Assembly: GCA_014238155.1 (NCBI GenBank)
Contig: JABABQ010000033.1
Coordinates: 55,538 to 119,537 of the forward strand
Reading direction: 5' to 3'
DNA from: Rhizobiaceae bacterium
GTDB taxonomy: Bacteria > Pseudomonadota > Alphaproteobacteria > Rhizobiales > Rhizobiaceae
Length of the DNA stretch: 64,000 nucleotides
The translations under genes were made by a program, and so were the position numbers. Under the pieces are notes generated by a model. That model made no database searches and was not told the DNA's origin. It saw nothing but the letters and a program-made list of their open reading frames with translations. This document shows, piece by piece, positions 3,370-46,573 of the stretch (the first letter of the stretch is position 1; each line of letters opens with the position of its first letter).

Positions 3370-4395
3370 CTAGAATCTGGCCAGGGCCCTGTCCAACTTA
3401 TTGAATTGGGTGCGACCGTTGGGCAAGCCGATTCTCAACCAATCGGGCTTACCAGAAAATGGTCGCGTCAGAATGTGGGCATTGGCCAGATGGGCCCACA
3501 ATTCTTCCGCCTTGTCATGCCTGATCAGAACAAATAGCAGTGTTCCACCAAGAACCTCAATGCTGTGTTTTTCCAGCACTGCTGCAAGTTTCTGCCGGGC
3601 ATTTGTCAGTTTTCGGAAATTGCGTTTTTGCCAAGTCTGGTCCCGCATTGCCTTTTCGGCAATCGCAAGGGCCGGACCGGATACCGCCCATGGTCCCAAC
3701 CTTTGATCCAGTCGCGTTGCGATGGAAGGAGTTGTCAAGCCGACACCAAAGCGAACACCTGCAAGTCCGAAAAACTTACCCAGGGAGCGCATCACAAACA
3801 GCCCATCACGCCCCGCCTCACCAGCAATCGAATGTTCCGGCAGCACGTCTGCAAAACTTTCATCGACAATCAACAGCCCGCCCTTTGCGGCCAGTCGCCG
3901 GGCCAGCAGGCTTAGTTCATTGCGTTCAAACACACGCCCATCGGGATTATTGGGATTAACGACAATGACAATTCTGGCGGTTGCTTCGGCACTGTTGAGA
4001 CCGTCGGTCATATAGACTTCATGGCCTGCCCTTTGCCAGCACACACCATGTTCCTGATAGGTAAAACCGACAATCGCTATTGGCTGTGGCTTGTACAGAT
4101 ACGGCAATGTCTGAATATGCATCTGGGAACCGGGTGCCAGCGAAATTCCGGCAGTCTCATCAACTCCGTAACAAGACCGGACCGCTTGGCAGGTTTGCTC
4201 CACGGCGTGCTCGTCAGGCAATTCGGTCCAGGCTGAATTGGCTATTTCAGGCACAGGATAGGCATGGGGATTGATGCCGGTTGAAAGGTCGACCCAACGC
4301 TCGCGCTGGCCTCCAAACTGTGCCACCGCCTCATCCAGTCGGCCACCATGAGCAACTTCATTCATACCCTTTGTTCCATGCATAGATTCCCTCAA
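3370..4395 (-). CDS. cobD: L-threonine-O-3-phosphate decarboxylase (CobD in Salmonella naming, CobC in Pseudomonas denitrificans naming). The start may be one of the internal Met codons.
   Basis: Class I/II aminotransferase fold motifs (VVNPNNPDG, SLGKFFGLAGVRFG with the PLP lysine). Sits between cobB and cbiB. Confidence 0.8.
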   Translation of the reverse strand: MRESMHGTKGMNEVAHGGRLDEAVAQFGGQRERWVDLSTGINPHAYPVPEIANSAWTELPDEHAVEQTCQAVRSCYGVDETAGISLAPGSQMHIQTLPYLYKPQPIAIVGFTYQEHGVCWQRAGHEVYMTDGLNSAEATARIVIVVNPNNPDGRVFERNELSLLARRLAAKGGLLIVDESFADVLPEHSIAGEAGRDGLFVMRSLGKFFGLAGVRFGVGLTTPSIATRLDQRLGPWAVSGPALAIAEKAMRDQTWQKRNFRKLTNARQKLAAVLEKHSIEVLGGTLLFVLIRHDKAEELWAHLANAHILTRPFSGKPDWLRIGLPNGRTQFNKLDRALARF

Positions 4396-5704: not shown

Positions 5705-6559
5705 TCAGGCGCTCTTTGAAATCTGACGGGTTCCCAATGGATCTTTTTCCAGGACCCTACCCTCCAATGCCCCCAGCCAGTCGAGCGCTGCCCGCAACCG
5801 GACAACTTCTCCCAACACGACGATCGCCGGAGGCGCGAGGCCGAGTGCTTCCAGATCGCCGATATTCCCGAGCGTCGTTTCGTAAACCTGCATATCTTTT
5901 GTTGTCGCATTGCAGACAAATGCAATGGGTTCGTCGCCACTGCGACCGGCATCGATCAATTTACGGGCAATATTGTGGGCGTGTTTCATGGCCATATACA
6001 TGACAATCACCGGCGACCCCTTGGCAATGCTGGGCCAGTCAATCGCATCCGGCACGACCCCGCCGGCATCATGGCCGGTCAGGAAAGTAACATTTTGATT
6101 GGTATCACGGTGGGTGACAGGAATGCCTGCATAAGCCAGCCCGCCAATTCCCGCTGAAATGCCCGGAATAATCCGAAACGGCACATCATGCTCTACCAGT
6201 GTCAGCGCCTCTTCTCCGCCACGCCCGAAAACGAAGGGATCGCCGCCCTTTAGCCGACAAACACGGTTACCGGCCTGTGCAAGTTCGACAAGTCGCAGCG
6301 AAATATCTCTTTGACTGGCAGACGGTTTTCCACCGCGTTTTCCGGCATATTCCAGAAGCGTCTCCGGTTTTGCCAATCCCAGTATCTGGTCATTGACCAG
6401 CGCGTCATAAATCACGACATCAGCGGATTGAAGTGCGTTGACTGCATGTAACGTCAACAGGCCCGGATCCCCCGGCCCAGCCCCCACGAGCCAGACCCAG
6501 CCTGGATCAAATTTCGGTAAATTGTGGATTGCAGATGTCATGTCGGAAATATGCGCCAA
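5705..6559 (-). CDS. cobA: uroporphyrinogen-III C-methyltransferase (SUMT)
   Basis: VWLVGAGPGDPGLLTLHA and VCRLKGGDPFVFGRGGEE motifs of the tetrapyrrole methylase family. Confidence 0.9.
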   Translation of the reverse strand: MAHISDMTSAIHNLPKFDPGWVWLVGAGPGDPGLLTLHAVNALQSADVVIYDALVNDQILGLAKPETLLEYAGKRGGKPSASQRDISLRLVELAQAGNRVCRLKGGDPFVFGRGGEEALTLVEHDVPFRIIPGISAGIGGLAYAGIPVTHRDTNQNVTFLTGHDAGGVVPDAIDWPSIAKGSPVIVMYMAMKHAHNIARKLIDAGRSGDEPIAFVCNATTKDMQVYETTLGNIGDLEALGLAPPAIVVLGEVVRLRAALDWLGALEGRVLEKDPLGTRQISKSA

Positions 6560-6615
6560 ACTGCGTCTGAAAACCAGCGCTTTTACGTCTCGCTGATGTC
6601 GCCTATAAGCCAGTT

Positions 6616-7719
6616 ATGGAGAGCTCACGCGAACAAAAACCAAATACCCCATTACGCCGTGGCTGGACCACGGGTGCCTGTGCAACAGCCGCCACCAAGG
6701 CTGCACTAACCGCATTGGTTACCGGGGAATTTCCAGACCCGGTGGAAATAATTCTGCCCAAGGGAGAAACCCCAAACTTTGCTCTTTGTTTTGAATCACT
6801 CAACGATAGTGGCGCCTATGCGGGCATTGTAAAAGATGCTGGTGATGACCCTGATGTAACCCACGGCGCAACCATAATTGCCCATGTGGTTCCCCTGCCG
6901 CAGGGCTCAGGCGTGGTCTTTGCCGCTGGTGAAGGGGTTGGCACCGTGAGCAAAGCCGGATTGGCCATTTCGCCAGGCGAAGCTGCCATTAATCCTGTGC
7001 CCCGTCAGATGATGTGCGACGTGGTCGGGGAAATTTGCGCCGAGCACATGTTGCCGCCAGATTTAAAGATTACCATTAGTGTTCCAGGCGGTGAAGACCT
7101 TGCAAAACAGACCTGGAACCCCCGATTGGGCATTCTCGGTGGCATTTCCATTCTTGGGACGACCGGTATCGTCCATCCATTTTCCTGCTCGGCGTGGATT
7201 CATTCAATCCACCGAGGCATTGATGTGGCCCGTGCGGCGAACTTTCAACGGGTGGTTGGTGCAACCGGGTCGACCTCAGAAGATGTTGCACAAAAGCTTT
7301 ATCAACTGCCGGAAACAGCCCTGCTCGACATGGGTGATTTTGCCGGTGGCCTGTTGAAATATCTGCGCAAACACCCGGTGCCAAACCTGACCATCGCCGG
7401 TGGTTTTGCCAAATTGACAAAACTTGCCCAAGGAGCGCTGGACCTCCATTCAGGCCGTAGTCAGGTCGATTTCCAATGGTTGGCAGACCAAGTTGAACTA
7501 CTGCATGAAACACCGTTGAATCAAAATATTAAGAAGCAGATTCTGAATGCCAATACGGCCGCCGAAGTGCTTGAATTGACTCAGAATATGGACATTGACA
7601 TGGCCGAACAGGTTGCTCGATTAGCACAAAAGTCGGCGCAAGGCGTGTTGCGAGATGCGGCTGTCTCGGTGGAAATTCTTGTCGTCAGCCGAAACGGGGT
7701 AATTCTGGCACGTGTTTGA
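6616..7719 (+). CDS. cbiD: cobalt-precorrin-5B (C1)-methyltransferase CbiD
   Basis: LRRGWTTGACATAATKAAL N-terminal signature, GGISILGTTGIVHPFS, about 367 aa. Confidence 0.9.
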   Translation: MESSREQKPNTPLRRGWTTGACATAATKAALTALVTGEFPDPVEIILPKGETPNFALCFESLNDSGAYAGIVKDAGDDPDVTHGATIIAHVVPLPQGSGVVFAAGEGVGTVSKAGLAISPGEAAINPVPRQMMCDVVGEICAEHMLPPDLKITISVPGGEDLAKQTWNPRLGILGGISILGTTGIVHPFSCSAWIHSIHRGIDVARAANFQRVVGATGSTSEDVAQKLYQLPETALLDMGDFAGGLLKYLRKHPVPNLTIAGGFAKLTKLAQGALDLHSGRSQVDFQWLADQVELLHETPLNQNIKKQILNANTAAEVLELTQNMDIDMAEQVARLAQKSAQGVLRDAAVSVEILVVSRNGVILARV

Positions 7720-8386
7720 AAAAATTCTGATCCTGGGCGGCACCAAAGAAGCCGCCGAATTGGCGAAATCGCTGGTGCGAGATGGGCATCAGGTGATTAC
7801 CTCGCTTGCCGGGCGCACGCGTGAGCCCAATCCGGTCGCCGGAAAAACCCGTGTCGGAGGATTTGGTGGTGCTGAAAAACTTGCCGTCTGGATTGTCGAA
7901 AACGCCATCGATCGGGTTATCGATTCAACCCACCCTTTTGCCACCCGGATTTCAGAAAATGCCTGCGCAGCCTGCAAAATTGCCGGTGTACCTTTGCAAC
8001 ACAACACCCGCCAGCCCTGGCAGCAGAAACCGCAAGATATCTGGCACCCGGTAGATACGCCAGATCAGGCAGCATCTGCTGTTCCGCCCGCTGCTCGCGT
8101 CTTGCTGGCACTTGGTTCTCAACATCTTGAAGCATTTGCCAGCCGCAACGACGTTCATTTCGTGGTGCGCATGGTGGATACACCTCCAGCGCCACTCAAA
8201 TTACCAGATTATGCGCTGATCGTCGGTCGCCCTCCCCCCGACTGGCAGCAGGAGGTGGAATTATTGAAACAGCACTCGATATCCCACATCGTCTGCCGCA
8301 ATTCCGGTGGCAGTGGCGCTTATGCCAAGATTATTGCAGCCAGGGAGTTGGCAATCCCGGTTATCATCATCAAGATGCCCCAATGA
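7712..8386 (+). CDS. cobK: precorrin-6A / cobalt-precorrin-6A reductase
   Basis: KILILGGTKEAAELAKSL N-terminus and C-terminal CRNSGG motif. GTG start overlaps the cbiD stop by 8 nt. Confidence 0.85.
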   Translation: MFEKILILGGTKEAAELAKSLVRDGHQVITSLAGRTREPNPVAGKTRVGGFGGAEKLAVWIVENAIDRVIDSTHPFATRISENACAACKIAGVPLQHNTRQPWQQKPQDIWHPVDTPDQAASAVPPAARVLLALGSQHLEAFASRNDVHFVVRMVDTPPAPLKLPDYALIVGRPPPDWQQEVELLKQHSISHIVCRNSGGSGAYAKIIAARELAIPVIIIKMPQ

Positions 8387-9543
8387 GCGCTGCGCCAATC
8401 ATTTCAATTGATCCCCGGAAATTCTGGCACGACCCCTATCCGACATTGGCAAAAATGCGCGCCAATACTCCGATTTGCTTTGTCCCGGAACTCAACGCCA
8501 CCTTGATGGTCAAGCGCGACGACATATTCACCTGCGAGAAGAATGTTGCGGTGTTTTCCTCCGACCAGCCCGGAGGATTGATGACGGTGCTGATGGGTGA
8601 GAACATGATGCGCAAGGATGGCGATGCCCACATGCTGGAACGGCGGCAATGTTTTCCGGCCCTGTCGCCGCGCACCGTGCGCGACGTCTGGAAAGCCCAA
8701 TTCCAGGCCGACGCCGAGGCGGTGATCGCCGATATTGCAAAATCACAAGCCTGCGATCTCGTTCAGGATTTCGCACTGCCGGTGTCAGCTCACGCCTTGC
8801 GTCACATTACTGGCCTGACCTGTATGACTGCTGCTGAAATGGATGCCGCTTCCCAGGGCATGATTGACGGCGTGGGCAATTATGGCGGTGATGGAAAAAT
8901 CGAAAAGCGCTGCCATTTCGCAACCGCACTGGTGGATCAGGCAATTGACACCATGCTGCCAAAACTGCAGCAGAAACCAAATCATAGTCTGCTCGGCGTA
9001 CTAGCCCAGACCGATCAGCCAATGGACAGCATCCGGGCCAATATAAAGCTGGCGATCAGCGGTGGTCAAAACGAGCCACGCGATGCGATTGCGGGCTGCA
9101 TCTGGGCCCTGCTGACCCATCGAGACCAGCTTCAGAACATTCTTGCAGGTACCAACAGCTGGGTTGATGCATTTGAGGAATATGCCCGCTGGATTTCTCC
9201 AATTGGCATGTCGCCGCGCCGCATTGCGCAGGATTACCAATGGAATGGTGTATTGCTGGAAGCAGAGCAGCGCCTGTTCTTCATGTTCGGTTCGGCCAAT
9301 CGCGACGAGGATATATTCTGTGACCCGCAGTTGTTTGACATCACCCGCAACACCTCAAAGGCGATATCATTTGGCGCTGGCCCACATTTTTGCGCCGGGG
9401 CTGCAGCATCCCGCTGCCTGATTGCCGAGATTGCCCTGCCAATGCTGTTTGACGCATTCCCAGATATTCAACTGGCCGGTGACGCGCCATTTGGCGGATG
9501 GGCCTTTCGGGGCCCACTGAAAGTGCCAGTGGCGCTCAACTAA
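8383..9543 (+). CDS. cytochrome P450
   Basis: Heme-thiolate loop FGAGPHFCAGAAASR and ExxR (EEYARW). The I-helix region reads AISGGQNEPRDA, without the usual acid-Thr pair. ATGA start/stop overlap with cobK. Confidence 0.85.
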   Translation: MSAAPIISIDPRKFWHDPYPTLAKMRANTPICFVPELNATLMVKRDDIFTCEKNVAVFSSDQPGGLMTVLMGENMMRKDGDAHMLERRQCFPALSPRTVRDVWKAQFQADAEAVIADIAKSQACDLVQDFALPVSAHALRHITGLTCMTAAEMDAASQGMIDGVGNYGGDGKIEKRCHFATALVDQAIDTMLPKLQQKPNHSLLGVLAQTDQPMDSIRANIKLAISGGQNEPRDAIAGCIWALLTHRDQLQNILAGTNSWVDAFEEYARWISPIGMSPRRIAQDYQWNGVLLEAEQRLFFMFGSANRDEDIFCDPQLFDITRNTSKAISFGAGPHFCAGAAASRCLIAEIALPMLFDAFPDIQLAGDAPFGGWAFRGPLKVPVALN

Positions 9544-9549
9544 TGCCGT

Positions 9550-10326
9550 TCAGGCGACCGCCTTTTTCTTACCGCGATTTCTTAATACGTGTGCATAATC
9601 AGGGTTGTAGAGATCGCTGTCCCGAAATTCTGCATTTCCAAAAACCGGCCCGACCATTACCAGTGCCGTGCGGGTAATTTTGGCCGCCCGAACCGCATCC
9701 TTCATTTGAGCCAATGTCGTTTTGATATACAATTCATCCGGCCAGGTGGAGCGATAGGCGATGACCACCGGGCAATCTTCGCCATAATACGGGGTCAGCG
9801 CTTCGCGAATATAGACCAGGTTGCGGATCGAAAGATGGATTGCCAGCGTCGCGCCCGACTGACCCAGAATTTCAAGCTGCTCGCCCTTCGGCATCGACGA
9901 GGCTTTCATGCCTGTGCGTGTAACGATGATCGTCTGGGCAATTTCCGGCAATGTCAGTTCGGTTTTCATTTTGGCAGCTACTGCAGCAAATGCCGGAACG
10001 CCGGGAATGATCTCATAGTCAATTTCCATCGCGTCGAGCCGCCGCATCTGCTCGGCTGTAGCACCGTAGATCGAAGGATCACCGGAATGGACCCGCGCTA
10101 CATCCTTGCCCTCTTCATCAGCAATCCGGATCTGCTCGATAATGGCGTCAAGATGCATCGGTGCTGTATCCATGACCAAAGCATCTTCGGGCGCCGCGGC
10201 AACGATCTCCTGGGGCACCAGAGAACCCGCATAGAGACAGACCGGGCAGGATTCAATCAACCGCAAACCCCGCACCGTTATCAGGTCCGGGGCTCCGGGA
10301 CCGGCTCCAATGAAATAGACACTCAT
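9550..10326 (-). CDS. cobM: precorrin-4 / cobalt-precorrin-4 C11-methyltransferase
   Basis: VYFIGAGPGAPDLITVRG and VHSGDPSIYGA motifs, 258 aa. Confidence 0.9.
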   Translation of the reverse strand: MSVYFIGAGPGAPDLITVRGLRLIESCPVCLYAGSLVPQEIVAAAPEDALVMDTAPMHLDAIIEQIRIADEEGKDVARVHSGDPSIYGATAEQMRRLDAMEIDYEIIPGVPAFAAVAAKMKTELTLPEIAQTIIVTRTGMKASSMPKGEQLEILGQSGATLAIHLSIRNLVYIREALTPYYGEDCPVVIAYRSTWPDELYIKTTLAQMKDAVRAAKITRTALVMVGPVFGNAEFRDSDLYNPDYAHVLRNRGKKKAVA

Positions 10327-12149
10327 GCCGCACTTCCAATCTTTGTACCTTGTTTGGCCGCATAGCCGCGCGGCGTATAGACCCAGTTTTTGCCATCACC
10401 CGTCTGCACGGTCTGGCTTTGCGACGATCCGACAATCACCACTGTCAGCATGTCGACATCATCAATCAACAAATCTGCCAGTGGAACGATCCGTATCAGT
10501 TCGCCTTCACGCCCCAGATTGGTCGCCAGGATCACCGGCGTATCGACGGGCCGGTGTTGCAGAAGCAAGTCCTTGGCGTAGACCAACTGGGTGCGGCGGC
10601 GGCGCGATACAGGGTTATAAAATGCAATTACAAAATCACCCTCTGCCGCCGCTTTGACCCGCATCTGGATTGATTCCCAGGGGGTTAGAAGGTCAGACAA
10701 AGAGATTGTGCAAAAGTCATGTCCCAAAGGCGCTCCGGCCCGGGCGGCAGCTGCTTGAAGCGCGGATATGCCCGGTGATACCTGAATAGCTATGCGTTTT
10801 GCTGCATCACTCAATCCACCGGAATTCAGCAATTCGTAGACCAGTGTTGCCATGGCATAAATACCGGCGTCGCCGGAGCATACCAGGGCCACATTGCGCC
10901 CTTCACCAGCCAGTTCCATGGCATGCCGCACCCGGTCTTCTTCCTTGCCCAGATCAAAATCATGACGGGTGCGTGTGGTGGTCAGATCTCCCAGCAAATC
11001 AAGATAGAGCGAATAGCCCACCAGATCGGTTGCCTGTGAAACCAGTTGGGTAACTTCCGGGGACCGCCACCCTTCAGAGCCGGGTCCGATGCCAACAACA
11101 GATAATTGGCCACGAGACCGTCCTTTTTCATCAATCGGGAATGTCTTTGCCGCCGCACCAACCGCCATGGTTGCGCGGCTGGATTTGATTTTTGGGCGCA
11201 GCAGATGGCCATCACTTCCAACACTTGCCAATGCCGCCCCTTCGGCGACGCCATGACAGCCGACTTCGGCGAAAACCACATCTGATGGATGTTGCAACCG
11301 GTCGACTTCCAGCTCCAGTACTTCTGCTGAAAAGAAACGAGATGGAACTCCAAGATGATCAGCCAGTTGATGAATCGCTGTCTCGTCGGCTTTCAGGTCA
11401 ATTGACGCAACGCAGGCTATTGCGCAGGGATCGATGTCGCACTCAGCAAGGAGTGATCTAAGTTCCTCAAACCCGACACCACGTTCACACCCGACGCCCA
11501 GTGCCAGATTTTGACGGCAATAAACCAGTTCGAGATTTTGTGGGTCTAACGGCTCCGCGCTGACCGTCAACCGCACGTCACCAGTCGGGCTGAACGGCAG
11601 GTCCGACTGGCTCAGCCAATTGGCCTGTTCCAGATCATTACCAGCCAGTTGAACGTGGGCGCCACCAAGCAATGCCGCCATCACCGCTTTGGCATTTTCC
11701 GGATTGCGCAACCGCCAGCCTGTTGGGGGTTCGTCCAGCGATACTCCAAAGCGGACATCTCCAGCTGTGGTAATTGCTGCAAAGCCACCAAGATGACCGG
11801 CCAACACCCGGGCCATCTGATTGCCACCATGGTGGCCACCCAAAAGCGGCACCACGGAAGATCCGTCATCGGCCACCGACAAAACCGCTGGATCGGTGCG
11901 TTTATCCCCGATGTGAGGCGCCAATAACCGAACCAGTGCGCCACAAGCCATGATTCCGATGAGAGTGCGCTTTTGGGCAAACAGGCTGCCCAGATGGTGC
12001 TGGGCATCGTCGAACAATATGTCAGCCCGTTCAATCCGTCCCCGCAATCCGTGGATTTCACCTCCCGACAGAGATTTAATCTCTTCAGCAACCGGCAAAG
12101 AGGAAGAAGACAGGACGACAATTGCCGGGCCTTCCGCAAGTGTGTTCAT
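10323..12149 (-). CDS. cobJ: fusion protein: N-terminal CbiG (cobalt-precorrin-5A hydrolase) plus C-terminal precorrin-3B / cobalt-factor-III C17-methyltransferase (CobJ/CbiH)
   Basis: The N-terminal ~340 aa have CbiG-like motifs (GIMACGALVRLLAP, VPLLGGHHGGN, LASIDLKADE). The C-terminal ~250 aa carry a methylase (LSVVGIGPGSEGW, VCSGDAGIYAMA). Confidence 0.85.
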   Translation of the reverse strand: MNTLAEGPAIVVLSSSSLPVAEEIKSLSGGEIHGLRGRIERADILFDDAQHHLGSLFAQKRTLIGIMACGALVRLLAPHIGDKRTDPAVLSVADDGSSVVPLLGGHHGGNQMARVLAGHLGGFAAITTAGDVRFGVSLDEPPTGWRLRNPENAKAVMAALLGGAHVQLAGNDLEQANWLSQSDLPFSPTGDVRLTVSAEPLDPQNLELVYCRQNLALGVGCERGVGFEELRSLLAECDIDPCAIACVASIDLKADETAIHQLADHLGVPSRFFSAEVLELEVDRLQHPSDVVFAEVGCHGVAEGAALASVGSDGHLLRPKIKSSRATMAVGAAAKTFPIDEKGRSRGQLSVVGIGPGSEGWRSPEVTQLVSQATDLVGYSLYLDLLGDLTTTRTRHDFDLGKEEDRVRHAMELAGEGRNVALVCSGDAGIYAMATLVYELLNSGGLSDAAKRIAIQVSPGISALQAAAARAGAPLGHDFCTISLSDLLTPWESIQMRVKAAAEGDFVIAFYNPVSRRRRTQLVYAKDLLLQHRPVDTPVILATNLGREGELIRIVPLADLLIDDVDMLTVVIVGSSQSQTVQTGDGKNWVYTPRGYAAKQGTKIGSAA

Positions 12150-12880
12150 TTTGATGCTCCAAATAATGGCAATTGCGAGATCCAGTTTTCCGCGCCTTTA
12201 TAGATCAGGATCATCGAGAAATAAGGTGCTGCAGCGTCTTTCACATCAGCCAGCGGCGCGATTTTCTGGTTTGGCAACGTCGCCCGTTCCAGATAGGCGG
12301 CTTGCCGCAGCAGACCAGCTTTGTCGATCAGTTGACGCACCCGCTCCAGATGCCGTCCAACTTTGATGAAACAAAGCGCGTCACTGCTGTTGAGATGATC
12401 CAGTATCTGCGCATCTTCAAGCGGAGACGGGATCACGGTCAATACATCGTTGCGGGCGGCCAGCGGTCGCCCGAAAGCAGCAGCCGACGCCATCATCGAT
12501 GATACGCCCGGAACGACCTCGCAGCGATAATTGGACGCCAGCCGTTCAAACAGATACATGAAGGAGCCATAGAAAAATGGATCACCTTCACAAAGAACAA
12601 CAACGTCCTCGCCTGAATCAAGATGCGAGGCGATACTTGTTGCCGCCTGATCATAAACACTTTTTGCCGGAAACCGTTCAACCCGCATCGGCACAATAAT
12701 TGGTATTTCTTTCTGCTCTGATGACAGATATTCAGCCACGATGGAGCGGGCAAAACTGTCACCATTATCAGGTGCGGGATAAGCAACCACCGGGGCCGTT
12801 GTGAGCAGACGATGGGCTTTCAGGGTAAGCAATTCAGGGTCACCTGGCCCGACACCAATGCCATAGAGCGTGCCGGTCAT
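12146..12880 (-). CDS. cobI: precorrin-2 / cobalt-factor-II C20-methyltransferase
   Basis: GTLYGIGVGPGDPELLTLKA and LCEGDPFFYGS motifs. Start chosen at the ATG that forms an ATGA overlap with the cobL stop; the ORF track extends to 12913. Confidence 0.85.
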   Translation of the reverse strand: MTGTLYGIGVGPGDPELLTLKAHRLLTTAPVVAYPAPDNGDSFARSIVAEYLSSEQKEIPIIVPMRVERFPAKSVYDQAATSIASHLDSGEDVVVLCEGDPFFYGSFMYLFERLASNYRCEVVPGVSSMMASAAAFGRPLAARNDVLTVIPSPLEDAQILDHLNSSDALCFIKVGRHLERVRQLIDKAGLLRQAAYLERATLPNQKIAPLADVKDAAAPYFSMILIYKGAENWISQLPLFGASK

Positions 12881-14091
12881 CACGCGACATCCCATGGCTT
12901 TATTACACTCCACTGGGTCACTGGCATTGCAGCACGCCAGCCACGAAAGGTGCCAATATTCTCAGCCTTTTGCACCGACAGTCTGACAAGCTCCCCGCCA
13001 AGATTTCCATGCAGGTCAATCAGGCGAGCTTCACTTTCCAACGTCACAACATTGGCGACGAGACGACCACCGGGTCGCATTGCCGCCCACACGGTCTCAA
13101 AAAGCCCCTCTGCCGAAAGGCCACCCCCGATAAACACAGCGTCAGGTTGCGGCAATCCCTTCAGATTATCGGGCGCCCGTCCTTCAATCACCATCATTTT
13201 TTCTGCACCCAACTGCACCATATTTTTGCGGATCATTTCAACACGCCGGGGCTTTTCTTCCACCGCAACTGCGATCGCTCCTCTTGCCGCGCGCATCCAT
13301 TCGACACTGACCGATCCGCAGCCTGCACCGATGTCCCACAATATGGAGTCCGGGAAAGGCGCCAGTTTGGCCAGTGTTGCCGCTCTTATATCTTGTTTGG
13401 TGATCTGTCCGTCTGACACAAATGCCTGATCCGGCAGACCACCGGTTCGCGGATACCATTGAGCATTTTCGCCGCCGACACATTCTATCGCCAGCGTATG
13501 AAAATCCGGAACCTCGTGGTGCCAGGTCTCAGCTGTTGCTTCAAATCGCTGTTCGCGGACGCCACCAAGAGCCGCAAGCGCCACCATCCTGCTGGCAGCA
13601 AAGCCCCGGTCGCACAGCATCTTGGCCAGAGCCGCGGGCGTATCGGCATTTTGAGTAAGAACCAACATCCGCACGCGCGGGGCCATGTGGGGCAATATCT
13701 GGCTATCGGCGCGGCCGTGCACCGTCACCGTTTCACAATCAGCAAGGCTCCAGCCCATGCGAGCCGAGGCCCATTGGAAAGCTGAAAGCTGCGGATAAAA
13801 TGTCACGTCATCAGCCGGAATAGCCTTCAGGATACGGGCGCCCACAGAATACCAAAGCGGATCACCGGTCACCAAAATCACAATCTGTCGCCCCTGATAT
13901 GACTTGATTTCATCAATCAGCGCATCGAACGGAGATGGCCAGTTTATGCGTTGGGCGCTGATATTGGAGGACAGTCCGTGGTGACGCTGGCCGCCGATGA
14001 TGACTTCAGCGCCTTCCAGCACTTCCAGCGCTTTGGCAGACAGGCCGTCAACGCCGTCTTCGCCAATACCGATTATGTTCAACCAGCTCAT
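12880..14091 (-). CDS. cobL: precorrin-6Y C5,15-methyltransferase (decarboxylating), CbiE+CbiT fused
   Basis: N-terminal tetrapyrrole methylase part (LNIIGIGEDG) and C-terminal SAM-MTase part (LWDIGAGCGSVSVEW), 403 aa. Confidence 0.9.
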   Translation of the reverse strand: MSWLNIIGIGEDGVDGLSAKALEVLEGAEVIIGGQRHHGLSSNISAQRINWPSPFDALIDEIKSYQGRQIVILVTGDPLWYSVGARILKAIPADDVTFYPQLSAFQWASARMGWSLADCETVTVHGRADSQILPHMAPRVRMLVLTQNADTPAALAKMLCDRGFAASRMVALAALGGVREQRFEATAETWHHEVPDFHTLAIECVGGENAQWYPRTGGLPDQAFVSDGQITKQDIRAATLAKLAPFPDSILWDIGAGCGSVSVEWMRAARGAIAVAVEEKPRRVEMIRKNMVQLGAEKMMVIEGRAPDNLKGLPQPDAVFIGGGLSAEGLFETVWAAMRPGGRLVANVVTLESEARLIDLHGNLGGELVRLSVQKAENIGTFRGWRAAMPVTQWSVIKPWDVA

Positions 14092-14723
14092 TGTTCCAAC
14101 TCCGCCGACAGGGCATTGACCACCGCGCTGGCCATTGCCGAGCCGCCACGACGTCCATGAACCGTAATATAGTTCAACCCCTGGCCAAATTCAGCCAGCG
14201 CCAGCTTGGATTCCACCGCACCCACAAATCCCACCGGAATGCCGATCACCAGAGCCGGCATGCCCCTGCCCTGTTGAATGTTCTCCAACAGCCGGAACAA
14301 GGCCGTCGGCGCGTTGCCGATGGCGATGACGGCACCTTCAACATCGTCCCAAAGATTAACGGCTGCAGCTGATCGCGTAGTGTCGATCTGGCTCGCCAGG
14401 TCCGGGGTTTGCGGGTCGTTGAGGGTACAGAGCAACTTATTGTCGGCAGGTAGCCGAGACTTGATGATCCCGGAACGCACCATCTCCACATCGCAATAGA
14501 TTGTGGTCCCCTGCTGCAAGGCTTTGCGTCCCGCCTGTGCTGCTCCAGCTGAAAACGACAAGTCCTCGATCACATCCACCATACCGCAGGAATGGATGAG
14601 GCGTGTCGCCACCGGTTGCATCGCCGCGGGCAGCGCAGACAAGCCCGCTTCCTCGCGCACAATGGCAAAGGAGCGACGATAAATCTCCGCAGGTTGTCGG
14701 ATATAATCATACATCACAGCCAC
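14088..14723 (-). CDS. cobH: precorrin-8X methylmutase
   Basis: YDYIRQPAEIY N-terminus, RLIHSCGM and IAIGNAPTALF motifs, 211 aa. Confidence 0.9.
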   Translation of the reverse strand: MAVMYDYIRQPAEIYRRSFAIVREEAGLSALPAAMQPVATRLIHSCGMVDVIEDLSFSAGAAQAGRKALQQGTTIYCDVEMVRSGIIKSRLPADNKLLCTLNDPQTPDLASQIDTTRSAAAVNLWDDVEGAVIAIGNAPTALFRLLENIQQGRGMPALVIGIPVGFVGAVESKLALAEFGQGLNYITVHGRRGGSAMASAVVNALSAELEQ

Positions 14724-14736
14724 TCAACATCCCAGA

Positions 14737-15885
14737 TCAGTGCTTTTTCATCGAGTTGGGACCATGTGGGTGGTCTGCATGGGGATAAGGATGATGATGG
14801 TGATCATCCCCGTGTGAATGGTCATGAGCGTGGCTGTGAGTGTGGCTGTGATCATGGTCATGATGATGCGGGTCCAGGCTGGCTGGGGAATCATGGGAAT
14901 GAACCGGTGTCCATGGCAAGCCATGTTGCTTGCAGAAATCCTCCTCCCGGCATGACGCGTCGCAATCGCCATTGCACGGACAATCTTCCAGCCCGCCGCC
15001 AATACCTTCCACATGATGGTGGTGGCTTTCCTGGGCCAGTCCGACCTGATCTTCAAAACCCAATACCTGCTCACGATATTTGCACATCTGGCAGTTCATC
15101 ACATTGAGACCGGCATCGATTTCATTAACCCGGTCTTCGAAAGTGGAGAGCACCAGTTCATGGTCGTTCAGATAGCCCGCTTTTAGGAATTCAATATCGG
15201 GATGGCGGGCGGCGACCTCATCGGTAAAGGCAAAGATGCGCTTGACCAGTACCCCGGTGAACAGGAAATACGGAAAGACTATAATGCGCTTGTAGCCAAG
15301 CTTGGCGGCGTGTTCCAAACCGGGTTCAACCAGCGGAAAGGTGACTCCGGAATAGCAGACTTCTCCCCAACCGAACCCAAACCCTTCCCACAGCATCCGC
15401 ATGATTTTGTTGATGTTTGAATTGGCGTCCGGATCAGACGATCCACGACCAACCACCATCAGCATTGTATCATGCAGTGCAACATCAGTGGCGGCGGCGG
15501 CGGCGGCATCGATTGCTTCCTGAACTCGCGCGGCAGCGGCCCGGATCATTTTTAGGTCGACCCCCAATTCCCGGCCATAGATGATTTCCATGCCTGGATT
15601 TTGCGCCTGATAGGTATTCAGCACCGAGGGAATATCGTTTTTTGCGTGACCGGCTGCAAACAACATGCCCGGCACCGCAAGCACCCGGGTACATCCCTGT
15701 TCACGCAGCTTGTCGAGGCCGTGGGAAATTACCGGATTGGCAAATTCAAGATACCCATATTCAACCGGCGCATCGCCGAAGCGGCCCTTGAGTCCTTGCG
15801 AAACCTGGGCAAATTCTTTCATCGCATTTTGATTGCGGCTGCCGTGACCACAAATCATGATGCCAATTTTTTCAGATGCGCTCAC
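14737..15885 (-). CDS. cbiX: long-form CbiX-type sirohydrochlorin cobaltochelatase with Cys-rich and His-rich C-terminal extension
   Basis: Tandem CbiX halves (IMICGHGSRN, MLMVVGRGSSD), then NCQMCKY (MxCxxC-like), CPCNGDCDASC and an HHHDHDHSHTHSHAHDHSHGDDHHHH tail. GTG start. Confidence 0.8.
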   Translation of the reverse strand: MSASEKIGIMICGHGSRNQNAMKEFAQVSQGLKGRFGDAPVEYGYLEFANPVISHGLDKLREQGCTRVLAVPGMLFAAGHAKNDIPSVLNTYQAQNPGMEIIYGRELGVDLKMIRAAAARVQEAIDAAAAAATDVALHDTMLMVVGRGSSDPDANSNINKIMRMLWEGFGFGWGEVCYSGVTFPLVEPGLEHAAKLGYKRIIVFPYFLFTGVLVKRIFAFTDEVAARHPDIEFLKAGYLNDHELVLSTFEDRVNEIDAGLNVMNCQMCKYREQVLGFEDQVGLAQESHHHHVEGIGGGLEDCPCNGDCDASCREEDFCKQHGLPWTPVHSHDSPASLDPHHHDHDHSHTHSHAHDHSHGDDHHHHPYPHADHPHGPNSMKKH

Positions 15886-16130
15886 GCTGCTTCCCCTTCA
15901 GCTTCAATGTCGGTCTCTTGCTCTTGATCTTTTTGCGGTTTGGAGCGCGCCGCCGCCGCCGTCGCCGCCGCCATCGCCGCGGCCAATGCGGCCGCCGCAG
16001 CCGCAGCGCCAATGGCGATCAGGTGTCCATGCCCCGCCAATTCCCCAACATGCCCCCAATGGGCGTGGGCCGCAGAGGTAAAGGTCAGCCCGGCAAAAAC
16101 AGGCAGGTAAAACGAGATAGATTTGAGCAT
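15882..16130 (-). CDS. small exported/membrane His-motif protein (82 aa): signal peptide, HWGHVGELAGHGH, Ala-rich TM helix, acidic tail
   Basis: The internal ATG at 16130 is preceded by GAGGAGA. The stop overlaps the cbiX GTG start (GTGA). The mature N-terminus resembles the His/Gly motifs of HupE/UreJ first segments. Confidence 0.55.
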   Translation of the reverse strand: MLKSISFYLPVFAGLTFTSAAHAHWGHVGELAGHGHLIAIGAAAAAAALAAAMAAATAAAARSKPQKDQEQETDIEAEGEAA

Positions 16131-16337
16131 TTTGGTCTCCTCGACGTTAAGTGACAGGCCGAGGGTCAGCGTTGCAAGTCGAGCTTGCTTCGCCAATCAG
16201 ACAGTTTCGAACTTGGCCCCCTGATTGGGTCAACCGCATCGAAATCGTTTTCAGCCCGTCGGTGGGCACCATCGATCTGGGCTGACAATATCCAAGCGCA
16301 TAGCAAACAACAAACGCTTTCGCGGCTTAGTTCACCC

Positions 16338-16748
16338 TTATTGCGACAATTTCAGCAGCACTTTCACATGATCGAGCATGCCCTGCTCCAAATCGTGAAG
16401 TTCCCCGTCTGCCATGGCCAATTGCTGAAGTTGATCAAACACCGTCCGCCGTTCAGCCGCGTTCAGCTGGCGGTTCAAAATAACGGTGAACGGGAACAGT
16501 CCCGCTGACAGGCGGTCATTTTCCTCTCCATCCAGCGTCAATTGTGCCAGCTGAGCTTCATCCAGCTCATATCTTTCCAGCAAAAGCGCGTGCAGTTGCG
16601 CCCGCTCTTCATCGGTCACCACACCATCAATGGCGATCATATGATAAAACAGCGCCGCAACGCAGACCTGAATGTCGTGATCCCCAAAACCCTGCTTGTG
16701 ATCAAGAGGTTCTGCCGCTTCCAGCCAATCCATTACCCGGTCAAACAT
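16338..16748 (-). CDS. TerB-like (tellurite-resistance TerB / DjlA N-terminal domain) family protein
   Basis: Two xADGxxxxxE helical repeats (MIAIDGVVTDEE, LAMADGELHDLE), 136 aa. Confidence 0.6.
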   Translation of the reverse strand: MFDRVMDWLEAAEPLDHKQGFGDHDIQVCVAALFYHMIAIDGVVTDEERAQLHALLLERYELDEAQLAQLTLDGEENDRLSAGLFPFTVILNRQLNAAERRTVFDQLQQLAMADGELHDLEQGMLDHVKVLLKLSQ

Positions 16749-16767
16749 GACAGCAACGCTCCATGGT

Positions 16768-17250
16768 TCAGAGCCTTGCCACGATCAGGTTGACCTGTTC
16801 AGGTGTATAGCCCAACACCCGTGATACCCGGGCGATGAGATCCACTTCATTTTCGTGCAACACGTTGTCGGCTCGCGCCATGGTAATCAGATTGCCAAGT
16901 ACTTGGGATTTGCGTTCTCCCGGCATTTCAGCAAACACGGCAGCCGCCTGCTCACCACTGGTCTCGTAGCCATAATCGCTGAGAAATTTTATCACTTCCG
17001 GCACGTCTTCTTCGGGAATGCCAAACATCGTTTTGCAATATTGCCTGAACAGATCGAGCTCGGGGCCTTTGAGTTCTCCGTCAATGAACATCATCCGCAC
17101 CAGCAGCATGATTTCAGAGGCCAGATGGGGATCATCTGCCACCACCTGCACCGAAGACTTGTTGGTCAGCAGCGACTTGATCGATTCCAGTATCCGCACC
17201 CTTGCCCCCAAAAACCTCCAAAACGGACAGAATCTGCCCCACCCAACCAT
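16768..17250 (-). CDS. TerB-like family protein, paralog of the downstream gene. Start uncertain; a GTG near 17199 would give ~143 aa.
   Basis: MMFIDGELKGPE and MARADNVLHENE repeats, the same architecture as 16338-16748. Confidence 0.55.
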   Translation of the reverse strand: MVGWGRFCPFWRFLGARVRILESIKSLLTNKSSVQVVADDPHLASEIMLLVRMMFIDGELKGPELDLFRQYCKTMFGIPEEDVPEVIKFLSDYGYETSGEQAAAVFAEMPGERKSQVLGNLITMARADNVLHENEVDLIARVSRVLGYTPEQVNLIVARL

Positions 17251-17331
17251 AATTGTTCCATTAACGGGACCAATCTGGCAAGTCGGGCGGTTTTTGGAAG
17301 AATTATCGCCGTAGAATTGTCGGTGCCAAGA

Positions 17332-17970
17332 TCAGAATTCGATGCCGACCTGGGCTTTCACCCCGTCTCTGAACGGGTGTTTCACCATCGTCATATCGGT
17401 CACCAGATCGGCGATTTCCATCAGTTCTTCCTTGGCGTTGCGGCCGGTGATGATGACGTGCTTCATCTCCGGCTTGTTCTGCAACACTTCGATGACTTCC
17501 GATACCGGAAGATAGTCATACCGCAACACGATGTTCAGCTCATCGCACAACACCATGTCGTGCTCATCGTCCATGATCATTTCCTTGGTGCGCTCCCAGG
17601 CGGCCCGCGCGGCATCGATATCCCGCTGACGGTCCTGGGTCTCCCAGGTAAACCCGTCGCCCATCGCCGTCATCGTCACCTGATCTCCCAATTTCTCGAG
17701 AATGACCCGCTCACCCGTCTGCCACTTGCCTTTGACAAACTGCACGACACCAACTTTCATGCCATTACCGAGTGCTCTGAAGACCATGCCGAAGGCGGCT
17801 GTGCTTTTGCCCTTGCCCTTGCCGGTATGCACCATGATCAACCCCTTTTCGCGGGTTTTTGTGGCGATGATCTTGTCGCGCGCCGCCTTCTTCTTTTTCA
17901 TTTTGTCGGCATGACGCGCGTTCAGTTGGTCTTCGGTGAGATGATCATATTTTCCGGGTTTATCAGCCAT
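17332..17970 (-). CDS. cobO: cob(I)yrinic acid a,c-diamide adenosyltransferase
   Basis: HTGKGKGKSTAAFG P-loop, LDELN-type motif (CDELNIVL), 212 aa. Confidence 0.9.
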   Translation of the reverse strand: MADKPGKYDHLTEDQLNARHADKMKKKKAARDKIIATKTREKGLIMVHTGKGKGKSTAAFGMVFRALGNGMKVGVVQFVKGKWQTGERVILEKLGDQVTMTAMGDGFTWETQDRQRDIDAARAAWERTKEMIMDDEHDMVLCDELNIVLRYDYLPVSEVIEVLQNKPEMKHVIITGRNAKEELMEIADLVTDMTMVKHPFRDGVKAQVGIEF

Positions 17971-18039
17971 GCCAGGTCTCGCTTTTGGTTTTCAGTTTCC
18001 GGTCATCGGCCAACACTGGCCGGTTGATTTCATTGTTGA

Positions 18040-21000
18040 TCATGTGGCTGCCCCCATCGGCCTGCCCGCATAGTGCTCAAGATCAAACTTCGCTGAGTTT
18101 GAGCGGGCTGTCCACAAGTCTCGTTCCATCGCTTCAAGCAAGCGATCACACATTTCTTTCAACGCATGTGGGTTTTTTTGAGCCATGAATTCGCGGACAT
18201 CTTCATCCACGACAAATGCCTGATATACAGCGTCGAAGTGATGATCGCGCACCGCTCCGGTTGTTGCTGAAAAAGCAAACATATAATCGACAGTCGCGGC
18301 TATTTCGAATGCACCCTTATAGCCGTGGCGCATAACACCGCTGATCCATTTGGGGTTGACCACGCGCGCCCGAACCACCCGACCGATTTCTTCTTCAAGC
18401 GTACGCACAACAGGGCGTTCGGGACGGGAATGGTCGTTGTGATAGACCGTCGGTCGGGTGCCGGAAACATGTTCGACAGCTGCCGTCATACCGCCTTCAA
18501 ACTGATAATAATCATCGCTGTCCAATAGGTCGTGTTCGCGGTTATCCTGATTGTGGACCACCGCCTGAACACCGCCGATCCTTTGTTCAAACTGCGATCT
18601 TGCCTCATCTCCCTGGGCGTCAGCGCCATAGGCGTAGCTGCCCCAGGTCAGATAGGCCTGAGCCAGGTCTGCTGCATCTTTCCAGCCCTTTTCATCGATC
18701 AGCGCTTGCAACCCTGCTCCGTAAGCTCCGGGTTTTGAGCCAAATATTCGATGCCCGGCAGACTTGCGCGCCTGTTTGTGCTCCACACCATCAGCGATCA
18801 AACTCGCTGTGTCCTCGGTGATTCTGGCGGCAATGGGATTATCTGCCGCATCCTCCTCAAGCGCACCAACAGCCCGGATGGCTTTGTCCAGAAGGTCAAT
18901 CTGCGCGGGAAAGGCATCGCGGAAAAACCCCGAGATGCGCATCGTTACGTCGACCCGTGGCCGGCCCAATTCCGCCAGAGTGATTATTTCTGTACCCGTT
19001 ACCCGCCGCGATCCATGGTCCCAGACTGGCCGAACGCCGATCAGCGCCAGGGCCTGGGCAATATCATCTCCTCCGGTGCGCATGTTGGAAGTGCCCCATG
19101 CCGAAAGGCCAAGGGAACGCGGCCATTCACCATGCTCCTGCCGATGCCGGGTGATCAGCAATTGGGCTGATTTCTGGCCCAGATGCCAGGCGGCGGGTGT
19201 TGGTACCGAACGGGAATCCACGGAATAAAAGTTGCGCCCCGTGGGCAGAACATCGGCCCGCCCACGGGTTGGTGCTCCTGATGGTCCGGGTTCGACAAAA
19301 CGACCATCCAGACCGGAGAGGAAACCGCTAATTTCATTGCGTCCGCAAGTTTCAATCACCGGCAGAAGAGTTCGTTGAATGCCATCCAGCACTGGCGCGG
19401 TGTTCTGCCAATTATCCTCAGCTTCGATTTCTCCGGACACAAGGCCGGCGGCAAGCACTTCAAGACGTTCAACGGTATCGCCAATGCTGCGCCAGTTATC
19501 GGCCAGCAAATCGCTGAAAATTTGTGGCTTTTCTCCCTCCCAGCGGGCACCCATGTCGCAGTCGAGCGGATCAAAATCGGTCTCAGGCAACAGATCAGCG
19601 GCCAGCGCCCGTTGCAGGCTGGCATCTTCGCCCTCGCCCAGGCCTCTGGGGACCCGCGCCAGAGCGACAGTCAGATCGGTTTTCAACCGCCCTTCTGGGG
19701 AAGCTCCAAAAATATGCAGACCATCCCTGATCTGCATTTCCTTCAATTCGCACAAATAGGCATCGAGCTTTTCCAACGCCGCATCATCGCCGACGTCGTC
19801 GCCACCGTCGCCGCCGCGATCAATGCCGACATCCTGATCAAGACCGGTGTCGCGCATCAGGTCCAGAATTTGACCTTTCAGATACGGCAGACGGCGTTGA
19901 TCGAACCCGGCGGCTTCATAATATTCATCCACCAGCGCCTCAAGCTCTTTCAACGGGCCATAACTTTCTGCCCGGGTGAGTGGTGGAGTCAGATGGTCAA
20001 TGATGACCGCCGAAGAGCGACGTTTGGCTTGAGTCCCTTCTCCCGGATCATTGACGATGAATGGATAGAGATGCGGCATTGCGCCAAATACGGCCTCGGG
20101 ATAGCAGGTTTCGCTCAACGACAGGGCCTTGCCCGGCAACCACTCCATGTTGCCGTGCTTGCCCATATGAGCAATTGCGTCTGCCCCAAACACTTCGCGC
20201 AGGAAAAAATAGAATGCAAAATAGCCGTGCGGCGGCACAAGGTCTGGTGAGTGATAGGTGTCGGTGGGGTTAATATTATAGCCACGCGCAGGCTGAATGC
20301 CGACCATGACATCGCCAAACGGTGCCAGCGGCAGGGCAAAGCAATCTTCTCCCGCAACAAAATATGGATCGGATTCTGGCGCTCCCCATCTGTCCTGAAC
20401 CTGCGCTTGAATCTCAGTTGGAAGGGAATCAAACAAAGTCTTGTAATGATTCAAACAATAGGTTTCGCGAATTTCCCTGCCATCGCGTGCAGCATTAGTC
20501 GGTCCGGCCTGCAGATGCGAGATCAACGCATCACCATCAACCGGCAGATCGCCGACCGAATAACCCTGATCCTGCATCGCCTTGAGCACTTCGATGGTGC
20601 CGGCCGGCGTGTCGAGACCAACTCCATTGCCCAATCTGCCATCGCGATTGGGATAGTTGGCCAAAATCAGGGCCACACGCCGCTCGCTTTCCGATTTACG
20701 GTGCAATTTCACCCAATTTGCTGCCAGTTCAGCGACAAATGTCACGCGGTCATCAAGCGCCACGTGACGGACGATATTGGCCTGCACGGCATCATCAAAA
20801 TTGTCGGCGTTCTTGAAGGCTATCGCCCGCGCGAGCACCCGACCGTCAACTTCCGGCAGAGCCACATTCATCGCAAGATCGCGCGAAGAGAGCCCCTGAT
20901 CAGATTGCTGCCAGGCTTCTTCGCTGCCGCCTGCAAGAATGGCCTGCAGTACGACGGCATCTCCTTCTTCCAATACGGTTGGAATGCGTTGGCCATTGGG

Positions 21001-21834
21001 AGAGGCAACGGCAAATCCAGTCATGTTGATGACCACCTGCGGTGCCGTTTGCGAAAACAGGTTGCGCACCGTGGCCTGAGACAGTTCATCCTTCAACGAA
21101 CTGACAAAAACCGGCAGAGAGTTGATGCCGAGAAGTTTCAACGCCGTCACCAGTTTTTCGATCGGCTGGGTGTTTCCAGATTGTAGCAAGGCCCGGTAGA
21201 ACGTCAGCGCAACCACCGGTGCATCTTTTATCCAGTTTTGCCGCAAGTCTTCCAATGTGGGAGTTGGATTGGACGGCCACCACAATCCGGCCTTTAAAAG
21301 CGGAGCAGCGGGTGCAATCTCTGCCAAACTTGCCTGATTGCCGCTGACGACATTCTTGCAGGCCCGCAAAAAATTGGACGAATTCTGGGCTCCGCCCTGA
21401 ACCAGATACTCCCACAGTGAGAGAACCAGTACCGGGTCAGCAGTATTAAAACGTTCCAGCGACGGGTCCGGTTTGTCGTCACCGGGCAGAGCAACCAGTG
21501 GAATACCATTTTCCACACAGGTCGCGTGCAAAACTTCCAGACCGTACGGCCAATAGCTCTCCCCGCCCAGCACCCGAACCACCACGAGGCGTGATTTTGC
21601 GACAGTATTTTGCGCGTAGACATCAATCGACATGGGGTGCGACAGGGCCATCATATTGGCCAGCCGCAGGCTCGGCGCATCGCCCAGTGACGTCAGCGCC
21701 TCCCGCGCCGCCGACAGGCTGGCGAGTTCTGTATCTGCCGCTGAAATAAAGATTATGTCGGCTGGCGACTGACCAAGGTCAATCGCCTCATCGGCATCTG
21801 CTATTGCGCCCTTTTGTGCCAGCAATAGATGCAT
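18040..21834 (-). CDS. cobN: cobaltochelatase large subunit CobN
   Basis: 1264 aa, matching CobN/Mg-chelatase H family length, with conserved blocks (HMGKHGNMEWLPGK, DNREHDLLDSDDYYQF). Confidence 0.95.
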   Translation of the reverse strand: MHLLLAQKGAIADADEAIDLGQSPADIIFISAADTELASLSAAREALTSLGDAPSLRLANMMALSHPMSIDVYAQNTVAKSRLVVVRVLGGESYWPYGLEVLHATCVENGIPLVALPGDDKPDPSLERFNTADPVLVLSLWEYLVQGGAQNSSNFLRACKNVVSGNQASLAEIAPAAPLLKAGLWWPSNPTPTLEDLRQNWIKDAPVVALTFYRALLQSGNTQPIEKLVTALKLLGINSLPVFVSSLKDELSQATVRNLFSQTAPQVVINMTGFAVASPNGQRIPTVLEEGDAVVLQAILAGGSEEAWQQSDQGLSSRDLAMNVALPEVDGRVLARAIAFKNADNFDDAVQANIVRHVALDDRVTFVAELAANWVKLHRKSESERRVALILANYPNRDGRLGNGVGLDTPAGTIEVLKAMQDQGYSVGDLPVDGDALISHLQAGPTNAARDGREIRETYCLNHYKTLFDSLPTEIQAQVQDRWGAPESDPYFVAGEDCFALPLAPFGDVMVGIQPARGYNINPTDTYHSPDLVPPHGYFAFYFFLREVFGADAIAHMGKHGNMEWLPGKALSLSETCYPEAVFGAMPHLYPFIVNDPGEGTQAKRRSSAVIIDHLTPPLTRAESYGPLKELEALVDEYYEAAGFDQRRLPYLKGQILDLMRDTGLDQDVGIDRGGDGGDDVGDDAALEKLDAYLCELKEMQIRDGLHIFGASPEGRLKTDLTVALARVPRGLGEGEDASLQRALAADLLPETDFDPLDCDMGARWEGEKPQIFSDLLADNWRSIGDTVERLEVLAAGLVSGEIEAEDNWQNTAPVLDGIQRTLLPVIETCGRNEISGFLSGLDGRFVEPGPSGAPTRGRADVLPTGRNFYSVDSRSVPTPAAWHLGQKSAQLLITRHRQEHGEWPRSLGLSAWGTSNMRTGGDDIAQALALIGVRPVWDHGSRRVTGTEIITLAELGRPRVDVTMRISGFFRDAFPAQIDLLDKAIRAVGALEEDAADNPIAARITEDTASLIADGVEHKQARKSAGHRIFGSKPGAYGAGLQALIDEKGWKDAADLAQAYLTWGSYAYGADAQGDEARSQFEQRIGGVQAVVHNQDNREHDLLDSDDYYQFEGGMTAAVEHVSGTRPTVYHNDHSRPERPVVRTLEEEIGRVVRARVVNPKWISGVMRHGYKGAFEIAATVDYMFAFSATTGAVRDHHFDAVYQAFVVDEDVREFMAQKNPHALKEMCDRLLEAMERDLWTARSNSAKFDLEHYAGRPMGAAT

Positions 21835-46181: not shown

Positions 46182-46231
46182 AACAGGCTCCAGACATTTA
46201 AAGGCACACGCCCACTTGTGTGGGCATGCCC

Positions 46232-46425: not shown

Positions 46426-46573
46426 AATGTCCGGTTCGCACCGGCCAGCAACAATTAGCTAGTACAATTGGATGCGTCTGTCACCCTACAATTTCGCGAT
46501 CAGAAGTGACGCTTTTTCAACAGCGCAGCGCTGAATTCCAACTCAAACTCAGTTCAATAGCGGGAGCGAAGTC

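Follow-up and report, generated by a model that had tools for sequence, protein, structure and literature searches.

A cytochrome P450 coupled to cobK in the cobalamin cluster of a marine Rhizobiaceae genus is probably an accessory gene rather than a B12 enzyme

In most cytochromes P450 the I-helix carries an acid–alcohol residue pair. The CYP255 enzymes have an amide–acid pair in its place, which mutagenesis of SyoA and GcoA has shown to be needed for O-demethylation driven by hydrogen peroxide (H2O2); SyoB is named as a partner protein of SyoA, and CYP1232, the sister family of CYP255, also demethylates aromatics (PMC11842817). For the biosynthesis of cobalamin (vitamin B12), an oxygen-independent route of ring contraction has been described (PMC7242693). 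Here we analyse a stretch of 64,000 nucleotides (the window) from a Rhizobiaceae bacterium (assembly GCA_014238155.1, contig JABABQ010000033.1, positions 55,538 to 119,537), in which a cytochrome P450 gene lies inside a cobalamin cluster as the last gene of the cbiD–cobK unit. A preliminary description, made from the sequence alone, had named this P450 (here P0001) a candidate for an oxygen-dependent step, whether on a precorrin or on the lower-ligand or aminopropanol arm, and had thought it just as possible that the gene is an unrelated passenger.

The evidence favours the passenger. Most likely, the P450 landed at a gene-insertion hotspot of the B12 cluster in one marine genus, and it is probably an accessory gene that takes no part in B12 synthesis. 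By analogy with the characterised enzymes CYP1232A24, GcoA and SyoA, we tentatively suggest that it may be an aromatic O-demethylase with peroxide capability.

Distribution of the P450 and its linkage to cob genes

Orthologues of P0001 occur in about 19 of the 30 congeners of the source genome, and adjoin cbiD–cobK wherever contigs permit the check. Nine other congeners (G001, G002, G006, G013, G018, G024, G026, G028 and G030), 91–99% complete, keep cbiD, CobN and CobS, and in these we found no orthologue of the P450, no CobG above its cut-off and no TcuA/CobZ. The orthologue is also absent from G007 and G019, which have only a 38%-identical paralogue. The cluster of the P450-less congeners is syntenic (cobA, cbiD, cobK, cobM, cbiG–cobJ, cobI, cobL, cobH and cbiX), and cobK either abuts cobM directly or is separated from it by one small unrelated gene. 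These congeners thus keep the cluster while carrying, as far as found, none of the three candidate oxygenases. Conservation of a P450 at this position in related cob clusters, a check that the preliminary description had put forward, therefore extends to about two-thirds of the congeners and breaks down in at least nine near-complete ones, in which the same cluster stands with no CobG, CobZ or P450 orthologue found.

For a wider test of linkage we took the 80 best loci among the genome loci that encode relatives of P0001 and counted cob genes within 10 kb. Only eight loci have any (L007–L012, L016 and L020), and these belong to a single clade, so that linkage to cob genes is not conserved across the family. 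Around the remaining 72, each neighbouring gene family turns up in ten loci at most, and the neighbours sampled are mutually unrelated (SpoIIE, AsnC, OpuAC, an AMP-binding enzyme, a nitrilase, MgtE and malate synthase, among others). No ferredoxin or reductase gene was found among the P450 neighbours in the window or in the sampled neighbourhoods of the 80 related loci. The family also appears not to be confined to makers of the corrin ring: five P450-bearing genomes of other lineages gave no match to CbiC/CobH (genomes of 4.4–7.4 Mb, completeness not reported). Absence from the syntenic cluster of near-complete congeners, together with the placement of most orthologues away from cob genes, argues against the oxygen-dependent step first proposed, which thereby fails the test of refutation that the preliminary description had set for it.

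An insertion hotspot between cobK and cobM

The P450 and cobM are convergent, with 6 bp between their stop codons (9541–9543 and 9550–9552). In relatives, this junction is variable. It holds a DoxX-like membrane protein or a short-chain dehydrogenase, each with or without the P450, and in further relatives a DUF900 hydrolase, an unknown open reading frame (ORF) of 189 residues, or an adenylate cyclase together with an IS3-type transposase (Table 1). In such relatives, the site at which cobK and cobM converge is a hotspot for insertion.

With support 95, the P450s linked to cob genes fall into one clade, the nearest neighbours of which come from Granulosicoccaceae and Halieaceae, both Gammaproteobacteria; the P450s of other Hyphomicrobiales are found across a 98-supported branch of the midpoint-rooted tree. 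In this tree the cob-linked P450 has the look of one capture event, which may have followed transfer between classes. In a tree of the flanking cob genes the presence of the P450 is clustered, a pattern that does not separate one gain from several losses. One congener (G025) has a copy (L108:2995–4149, minus strand) in which the heme-loop Gly that comes after Cys is replaced by TGA (FCA*AAAS); this copy is likely a pseudogene, although a sequencing error is possible.

Taken together, these patterns indicate that in an ancestor of the window's genus one P450 copy came into the short gap at which cobK and cobM converge, and that it has since been retained as the last gene of the cbiD–cobK unit, mostly with an overlap of start and stop codons. 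It is predicted to encode a functional, soluble P450 that would be transcribed and translated from the cbiD–cobK operon, and that would perform no corrin, lower-ligand or aminopropanol step.

The P450 and its family

The first reading of the gene, as a P450 of 386 residues with an ExxR motif, holds up: P0001 scores 35.7 bits against the Pfam p450 model (cut-off 22.8), the heme loop is intact and E266–R269 is in place (Table 1). The signature FxxGxxxCxG reads FGAGPHFCAG (residues 330–339), invariant from F330 to G339 in 20 aligned homologues. Equally, the GGQNEP I-helix lacks the canonical acid–Thr pair, as had been noted, and is invariant in the same alignment; Asn230–Glu231 occupies the site taken by the acid–alcohol pair in most P450s. 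The AlphaFold model (predicted local distance difference test (pLDDT) 83.6, predicted template modelling score (pTM) 0.86) has a P450 fold, the 50 top PDB matches listed (of at least 500) all being P450s, with a best template modelling (TM) score of 0.87. Matches in the ESM Atlas are solely to clusters named cytochrome P450. The ORF is no chance frame, because its start, its length and about 110 invariant columns are common to homologues of 60–88% identity.

P0001 has 6,210 homologues, the best 120 of which are 62–88% identical and of the same length, and a scan of species-representative genomes gave at least 582 loci with a relative. Their hosts are Rhizobiaceae, other Hyphomicrobiales, many Rhodobacterales (Ruegeria, Shimia and Thalassobius), Granulosicoccaceae and other Gammaproteobacteria; single metagenome-assembled genomes of Burkholderiaceae and Acidimicrobiaceae also encode one. 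The invariant columns of the 20 aligned members include the whole stretch ISGGQNEPR.AIAG, and the family is defined by the invariant I-helix ISGGQNEPRDAIAG. Judged by its alignment, this is a large, uncharacterised and conserved orthologous family under strong constraint, mostly of marine Proteobacteria. A literature search, with most subscription journals outside its reach, returned no report on the family and none that places a P450 in a cob operon.

The source genome encodes five further P450s. One of them (contig C28, L004:1411–2592, minus strand) is 35% identical to P0001 and has the I-helix IGGGINEPRD, closer to the motif of CYP1232A24. It is convergent with the gene for a 401-residue membrane protein resembling a ferric-reductase-type flavoprotein, and many congeners have this paralogue.

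Table 1 Positions in the window of the P450, its motifs and the surrounding cobalamin genes, with the inserts found at the cobK/cobM junction of related loci (L)
Feature	Position	Strand	Evidence
Cytochrome P450 gene (P0001), 386 residues	8383..9543	+	ORF; Pfam PF00067; predicted structure
Heme-thiolate loop FGAGPHFCAGAAASR, residues 330–344, axial Cys337 at 9391–9393	9370..9414	+	Sequence, alignment
ExxR motif, K-helix, E266–R269	9178..9189	+	E266 and R269 invariant in alignment
I-helix motif GGQNEP, residues 227–232	9061..9078	+	Invariant in 20 aligned homologues
ATGA overlap of cobK stop and P450 start	8383..8386	+	Read off the sequence
cbiD (C1 methyltransferase), opens the cbiD–cobK–P450 unit	6616..7719	+	NCBIfam NF000849, 488.8 bits, cut-off 348
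cobK/cbiJ (precorrin-6A reductase), directly 5' of the P450	7712..8386	+	Pfam CbiJ; NCBIfam NF005968, 260.7 bits, cut-off 231
cobM/cbiF, convergent with the P450	9550..10326	-	TIGR01465, 309 bits
CbiG fused to CobJ/CbiH (lactone hydrolase and ring-contraction methylase)	10323..12149	-	Pfam CbiG_N, CbiG_C, TP_methylase; TIGR01466, 280 bits
Long CbiX-type chelatase	14737..15885	-	Pfam CbiX, two stretches, 182 bits
Threonine-phosphate decarboxylase	3370–4395	-	330 bits
Sole cobalamin riboswitch of the window; heads the long minus-strand operon, not cbiD–cobK–P450	24208–24429	-	
cobK/cobM junction inserts in related loci	L009:11214–11570, L105:5826–6182, L020:11168–11974, L100:3016–3831, L016:11309–14131, L011:8801–9943		

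The cobalamin cluster and ring contraction

The cobalamin cluster makes up the first 24 kb of the window. The minus-strand genes that converge on the P450 are, in order, cobM, CbiG–CobJ, cobI, cobL, cobH, CbiX, two TerB-like genes, cobO, cobN, cobW and cobP, and cobA, cobB, threonine-phosphate decarboxylase and cbiB lie on the minus strand upstream of cbiD. For the products of both cbiD and cobK, scores exceed the cut-offs set for NCBIfam models of the cobalt type, and CbiX sits in the place that CobG presumably holds in other cob clusters. A tandem glycine riboswitch with two aptamers (55–63 bits) lies elsewhere in the window, at 46225–46432 (minus strand), upstream of a minus-strand gene at 45111–46181.

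That no CobG, CobZ or CobF accompanies these cob genes had been noted before, and profile searches agree that none lies inside the window. In the whole source genome neither CobG nor CobF scores above its NCBIfam cut-off. Across the genus, no CobG reaches its cut-off in any genome; the only matches to the model are proteins of about 560 residues with 115–154 bits (cut-off 234.8), which we take to be sulfite/nitrite-reductase-like. The sole CobZ-family match in the source genome is a tcuA–tcuB pair on another contig, beside a LysR regulator and with no cob genes nearby, and the TcuA/CobZ model finds a match in just 6 of the genus's 31 genomes, the source genome counted. At this pair (contig C3, L094:10000–17120), the next genes encode an MttB-like homologue of trimethylamine methyltransferase, which scores below its cut-off, and a Fe–S flavoprotein of the OYE/FadH type. 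The genome-wide search that the preliminary description called for thus returned bluB of the four genes sought (contig C35, 270 bits, cut-off 150), no CobG or CobF above cut-off, and CobZ only as this cob-unlinked pair.

From the profile matches the pathway appears otherwise complete (CbiX, CbiG–CobJ, CbiD, CobK, CobL, CobH, CobM, CobI and CobA, with BluB, CobS/CobT and threonine-phosphate decarboxylase). CbiX, CbiG–CobJ and CbiD are enzymes of the oxygen-independent route; the presence of CbiD explains the absence of CobF, and BluB and threonine-phosphate decarboxylase cover the lower ligand and the aminopropanol arm. Nearly all 30 congeners have CobN and CobS together with the CbiX, CbiG–CobJ and CbiD cluster (10323–21834 in the window); CobS and CobT are both present in the source genome, the one genome in which CobT was looked for. 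Many congeners (G001, G007, G013, G019, G025–G027, G030 and others) have a second, divergent gene of the CobN/Mg-chelatase family on another contig, and the source genome has one only.

Alternative roles

Several observations weigh against a mere passenger, or against the O-demethylase and peroxide chemistry suggested for it. The overlap between the P450 start and the cobK stop, already recognised in the preliminary description, is plain in the sequence ccccaATGAgc (8378–8388), in which the ATG at 8383–8385 overlaps the TGA at 8384–8386. This junction is kept in seven of the nine genomes examined, at P450 identities of 65–88%, and is the same in loci L007–L011 and L020. Between L007 and the window, the P450 is 88% identical, CbiD 88% and CobK 75%, so that the P450 is as conserved as its cob neighbours. 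Because the overlap is kept and the P450 is as conserved as its neighbours, co-expression with cbiD–cobK would be old and stable, and seems therefore to have been tolerated over the long term, or even selected. A scan of 6300–10000 for promoters and terminators gave no promoter-like site on the plus strand just 5' of the P450, nor a terminator following the gene, but such consensus matches carry little weight. Further, the genus has CobNST alongside CbiX, CbiG and CbiD with neither CobG nor CobZ, a puzzling set of genes for ring contraction. As to chemistry, CYP1232A24 was reportedly assayed with conventional redox partners and, because no member of the P0001 family is characterised, the suggestion of a peroxide-capable O-demethylase has as its basis 35% identity and a single motif in common.

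The strongest alternative keeps the accessory gene and changes its chemistry: P0001 may be an ordinary monooxygenase that acts on a non-aromatic or otherwise unrelated substrate, with ferredoxin and reductase encoded elsewhere and the Asn–Glu pair no sign of peroxide use. No characterised P450 is more than 35% identical to it, the five other P450 genes in the genome make it likely that redox partners exist, and bacterial P450s commonly have no partner gene next to them. However, the motifs that P0001 and CYP1232A24 have in common extend beyond the I-helix, and we consider this alternative unlikely.

A good deal less probable is recruitment of the P450, within the genus, to a peripheral and non-essential B12 task such as O-demethylation of a methoxy-benzimidazole or other tailoring or salvage of the lower ligand. 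The stable coupling to cobK, the aryl O-demethylases among the nearest characterised relatives and the patchy distribution would all be compatible with such a task. Against this, the cob-linked clade retains every family-invariant residue, so that no change of specificity is visible; the cobK/cobM junction also gathers clearly unrelated genes; dimethylbenzimidazole is already supplied by BluB; and no salvage or remodelling gene adjoins the P450.

The old and stable co-expression, and the pairing of CobNST with CbiX, CbiG and CbiD but without CobG or CobZ, lead us to keep a small probability for an auxiliary oxidative B12 route in the genus. The P450 would then provide a facultative shortcut, dependent on O2 or peroxide, at an intermediate of the tetrapyrrole or the lower ligand, such as hydroxylation of precorrin-3A at C20 to feed a CobNST late-insertion branch in air, and congeners without the P450 would rely only on the CbiX/CbiG/CbiD branch. 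We give this only a slight chance; if true, aerobic ring contraction would have a third solution, one based on a P450.

It is very improbable that P0001 is itself the O2-dependent precorrin-3B synthase that seems to be missing, performing C20 hydroxylation and lactone formation in place of CobG or CobZ on a cobalt-free route to CobNST. The translational coupling to cobK, the lack of CobG above cut-off and scarcity of TcuA/CobZ across the genus, and the presence of CobN, CobS and CobT, the textbook implication of which is late cobalt insertion and oxygen-requiring contraction (PMC7242693), speak for such an enzyme. Yet CobN, CobS and an identical cluster are present in at least nine near-complete congeners, with none of P450, CobG or CobZ found; most members of the family have no link to cob genes, and the family occurs in genomes in which no CbiC/CobH was found; CbiX, CbiG and CbiD provide the oxygen-independent route; and the active-site motifs resemble those of enzymes for small aromatics rather than for tetrapyrroles. 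Weakest of all, and scarcely credible, is a decaying remnant without current function in the source genome: the nonsense codon in one congener (G025) and the lack of the gene in about a third of congeners would fit decay, but the window copy is full length, with an unbroken frame, all invariant residues and 88% identity to its nearest relative.

The accessory gene thus remains the favoured reading, and for B12 biology the outcome is mostly negative, in that a gene inviting the label 'missing oxygenase' is, probably at least, a passenger. If so, the cluster should not be annotated with a P450 step. Of interest for ring contraction in air is the hybrid make-up of the whole genus, CobNST with CbiX, CbiG–CobJ and CbiD and neither CobG nor CobZ.

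Comparison with known systems

A search of the PDB with the family profile places CYP1232A24 of Arthrobacter sp. (6g71) first (E = 1e-95), followed by SyoA (8u09) and GcoA. CYP1232A24 is the best match to P0001 by both sequence and structure, with a TM score of 0.87 and 35% identity over 390 aligned columns. Both proteins have the I-helix motif Asn-Glu-Pro-Arg-Asp, and they also share MRKDG..H..ER, SQ.(M/L)IDG.GNY, PIGM.PR and GGW.FRGP. Their sources differ, an actinobacterium for CYP1232A24 and a marine proteobacterium for P0001, and the 35% identity falls short of the 40% amino-acid identity that defines a CYP family, which places P0001 outside CYP1232 by that rule. CYP1232A24 is said to O-demethylate papaverine and dimethoxy-aromatics.

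The CYP255A enzymes GcoA (5ncb) and SyoA have the same fold as P0001 (TM 0.78–0.83), but identity is only 22–26% and they carry a Gln–Glu pair where P0001 has Asn–Glu. In the alignment, N230–E231 of P0001 falls on the N–E of 6g71 and on Q252–E253 of SyoA, and P0001 thus has the amide–acid pair of the CYP1232/CYP255 group. From these three enzymes, P0001 would be expected to oxidise a small aromatic substrate, most likely by O-demethylation of a methoxy-arene. The genes for the reductases of GcoA and SyoA adjoin their P450 genes; no such dedicated reductase gene (as GcoB and SyoB) adjoins P0001 in the window or its relatives in the neighbourhoods sampled among the 80 loci. The Asn–Glu pair, standing in for the acid–alcohol pair, may permit direct use of H2O2, which would fit the absence of an adjacent ferredoxin or reductase gene. 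The hint of peroxide chemistry that the preliminary description took from the I-helix thus has, by analogy, a published precedent in the related CYP255 enzymes (PMC11842817). A large conserved family near CYP1232 and CYP255, with the Asn–Glu pair and no partner gene nearby, is in our view a reasonable place to seek natural stand-alone P450 peroxygenases in marine bacteria.

Like P0001, the CYP152 peroxygenases P450BSbeta and OleT have no acid–alcohol pair, and they use H2O2 without redox partners (PMC11842817). They differ from P0001 in relying on an Arg–Pro I-helix and a substrate carboxylate, and CYP152 is not among the top matches by sequence or fold. The likeness to CobG and CobZ is one of position only, each being an oxygen-using metalloprotein encoded inside a cob cluster. 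Neither is homologous to the P450: CobG is a relative of sulfite/nitrite reductase, CobZ a flavo-Fe–S-heme protein of the TcuA/TcuB type. Congeners, in turn, can do without the P450, and most of its family lies away from cob genes.

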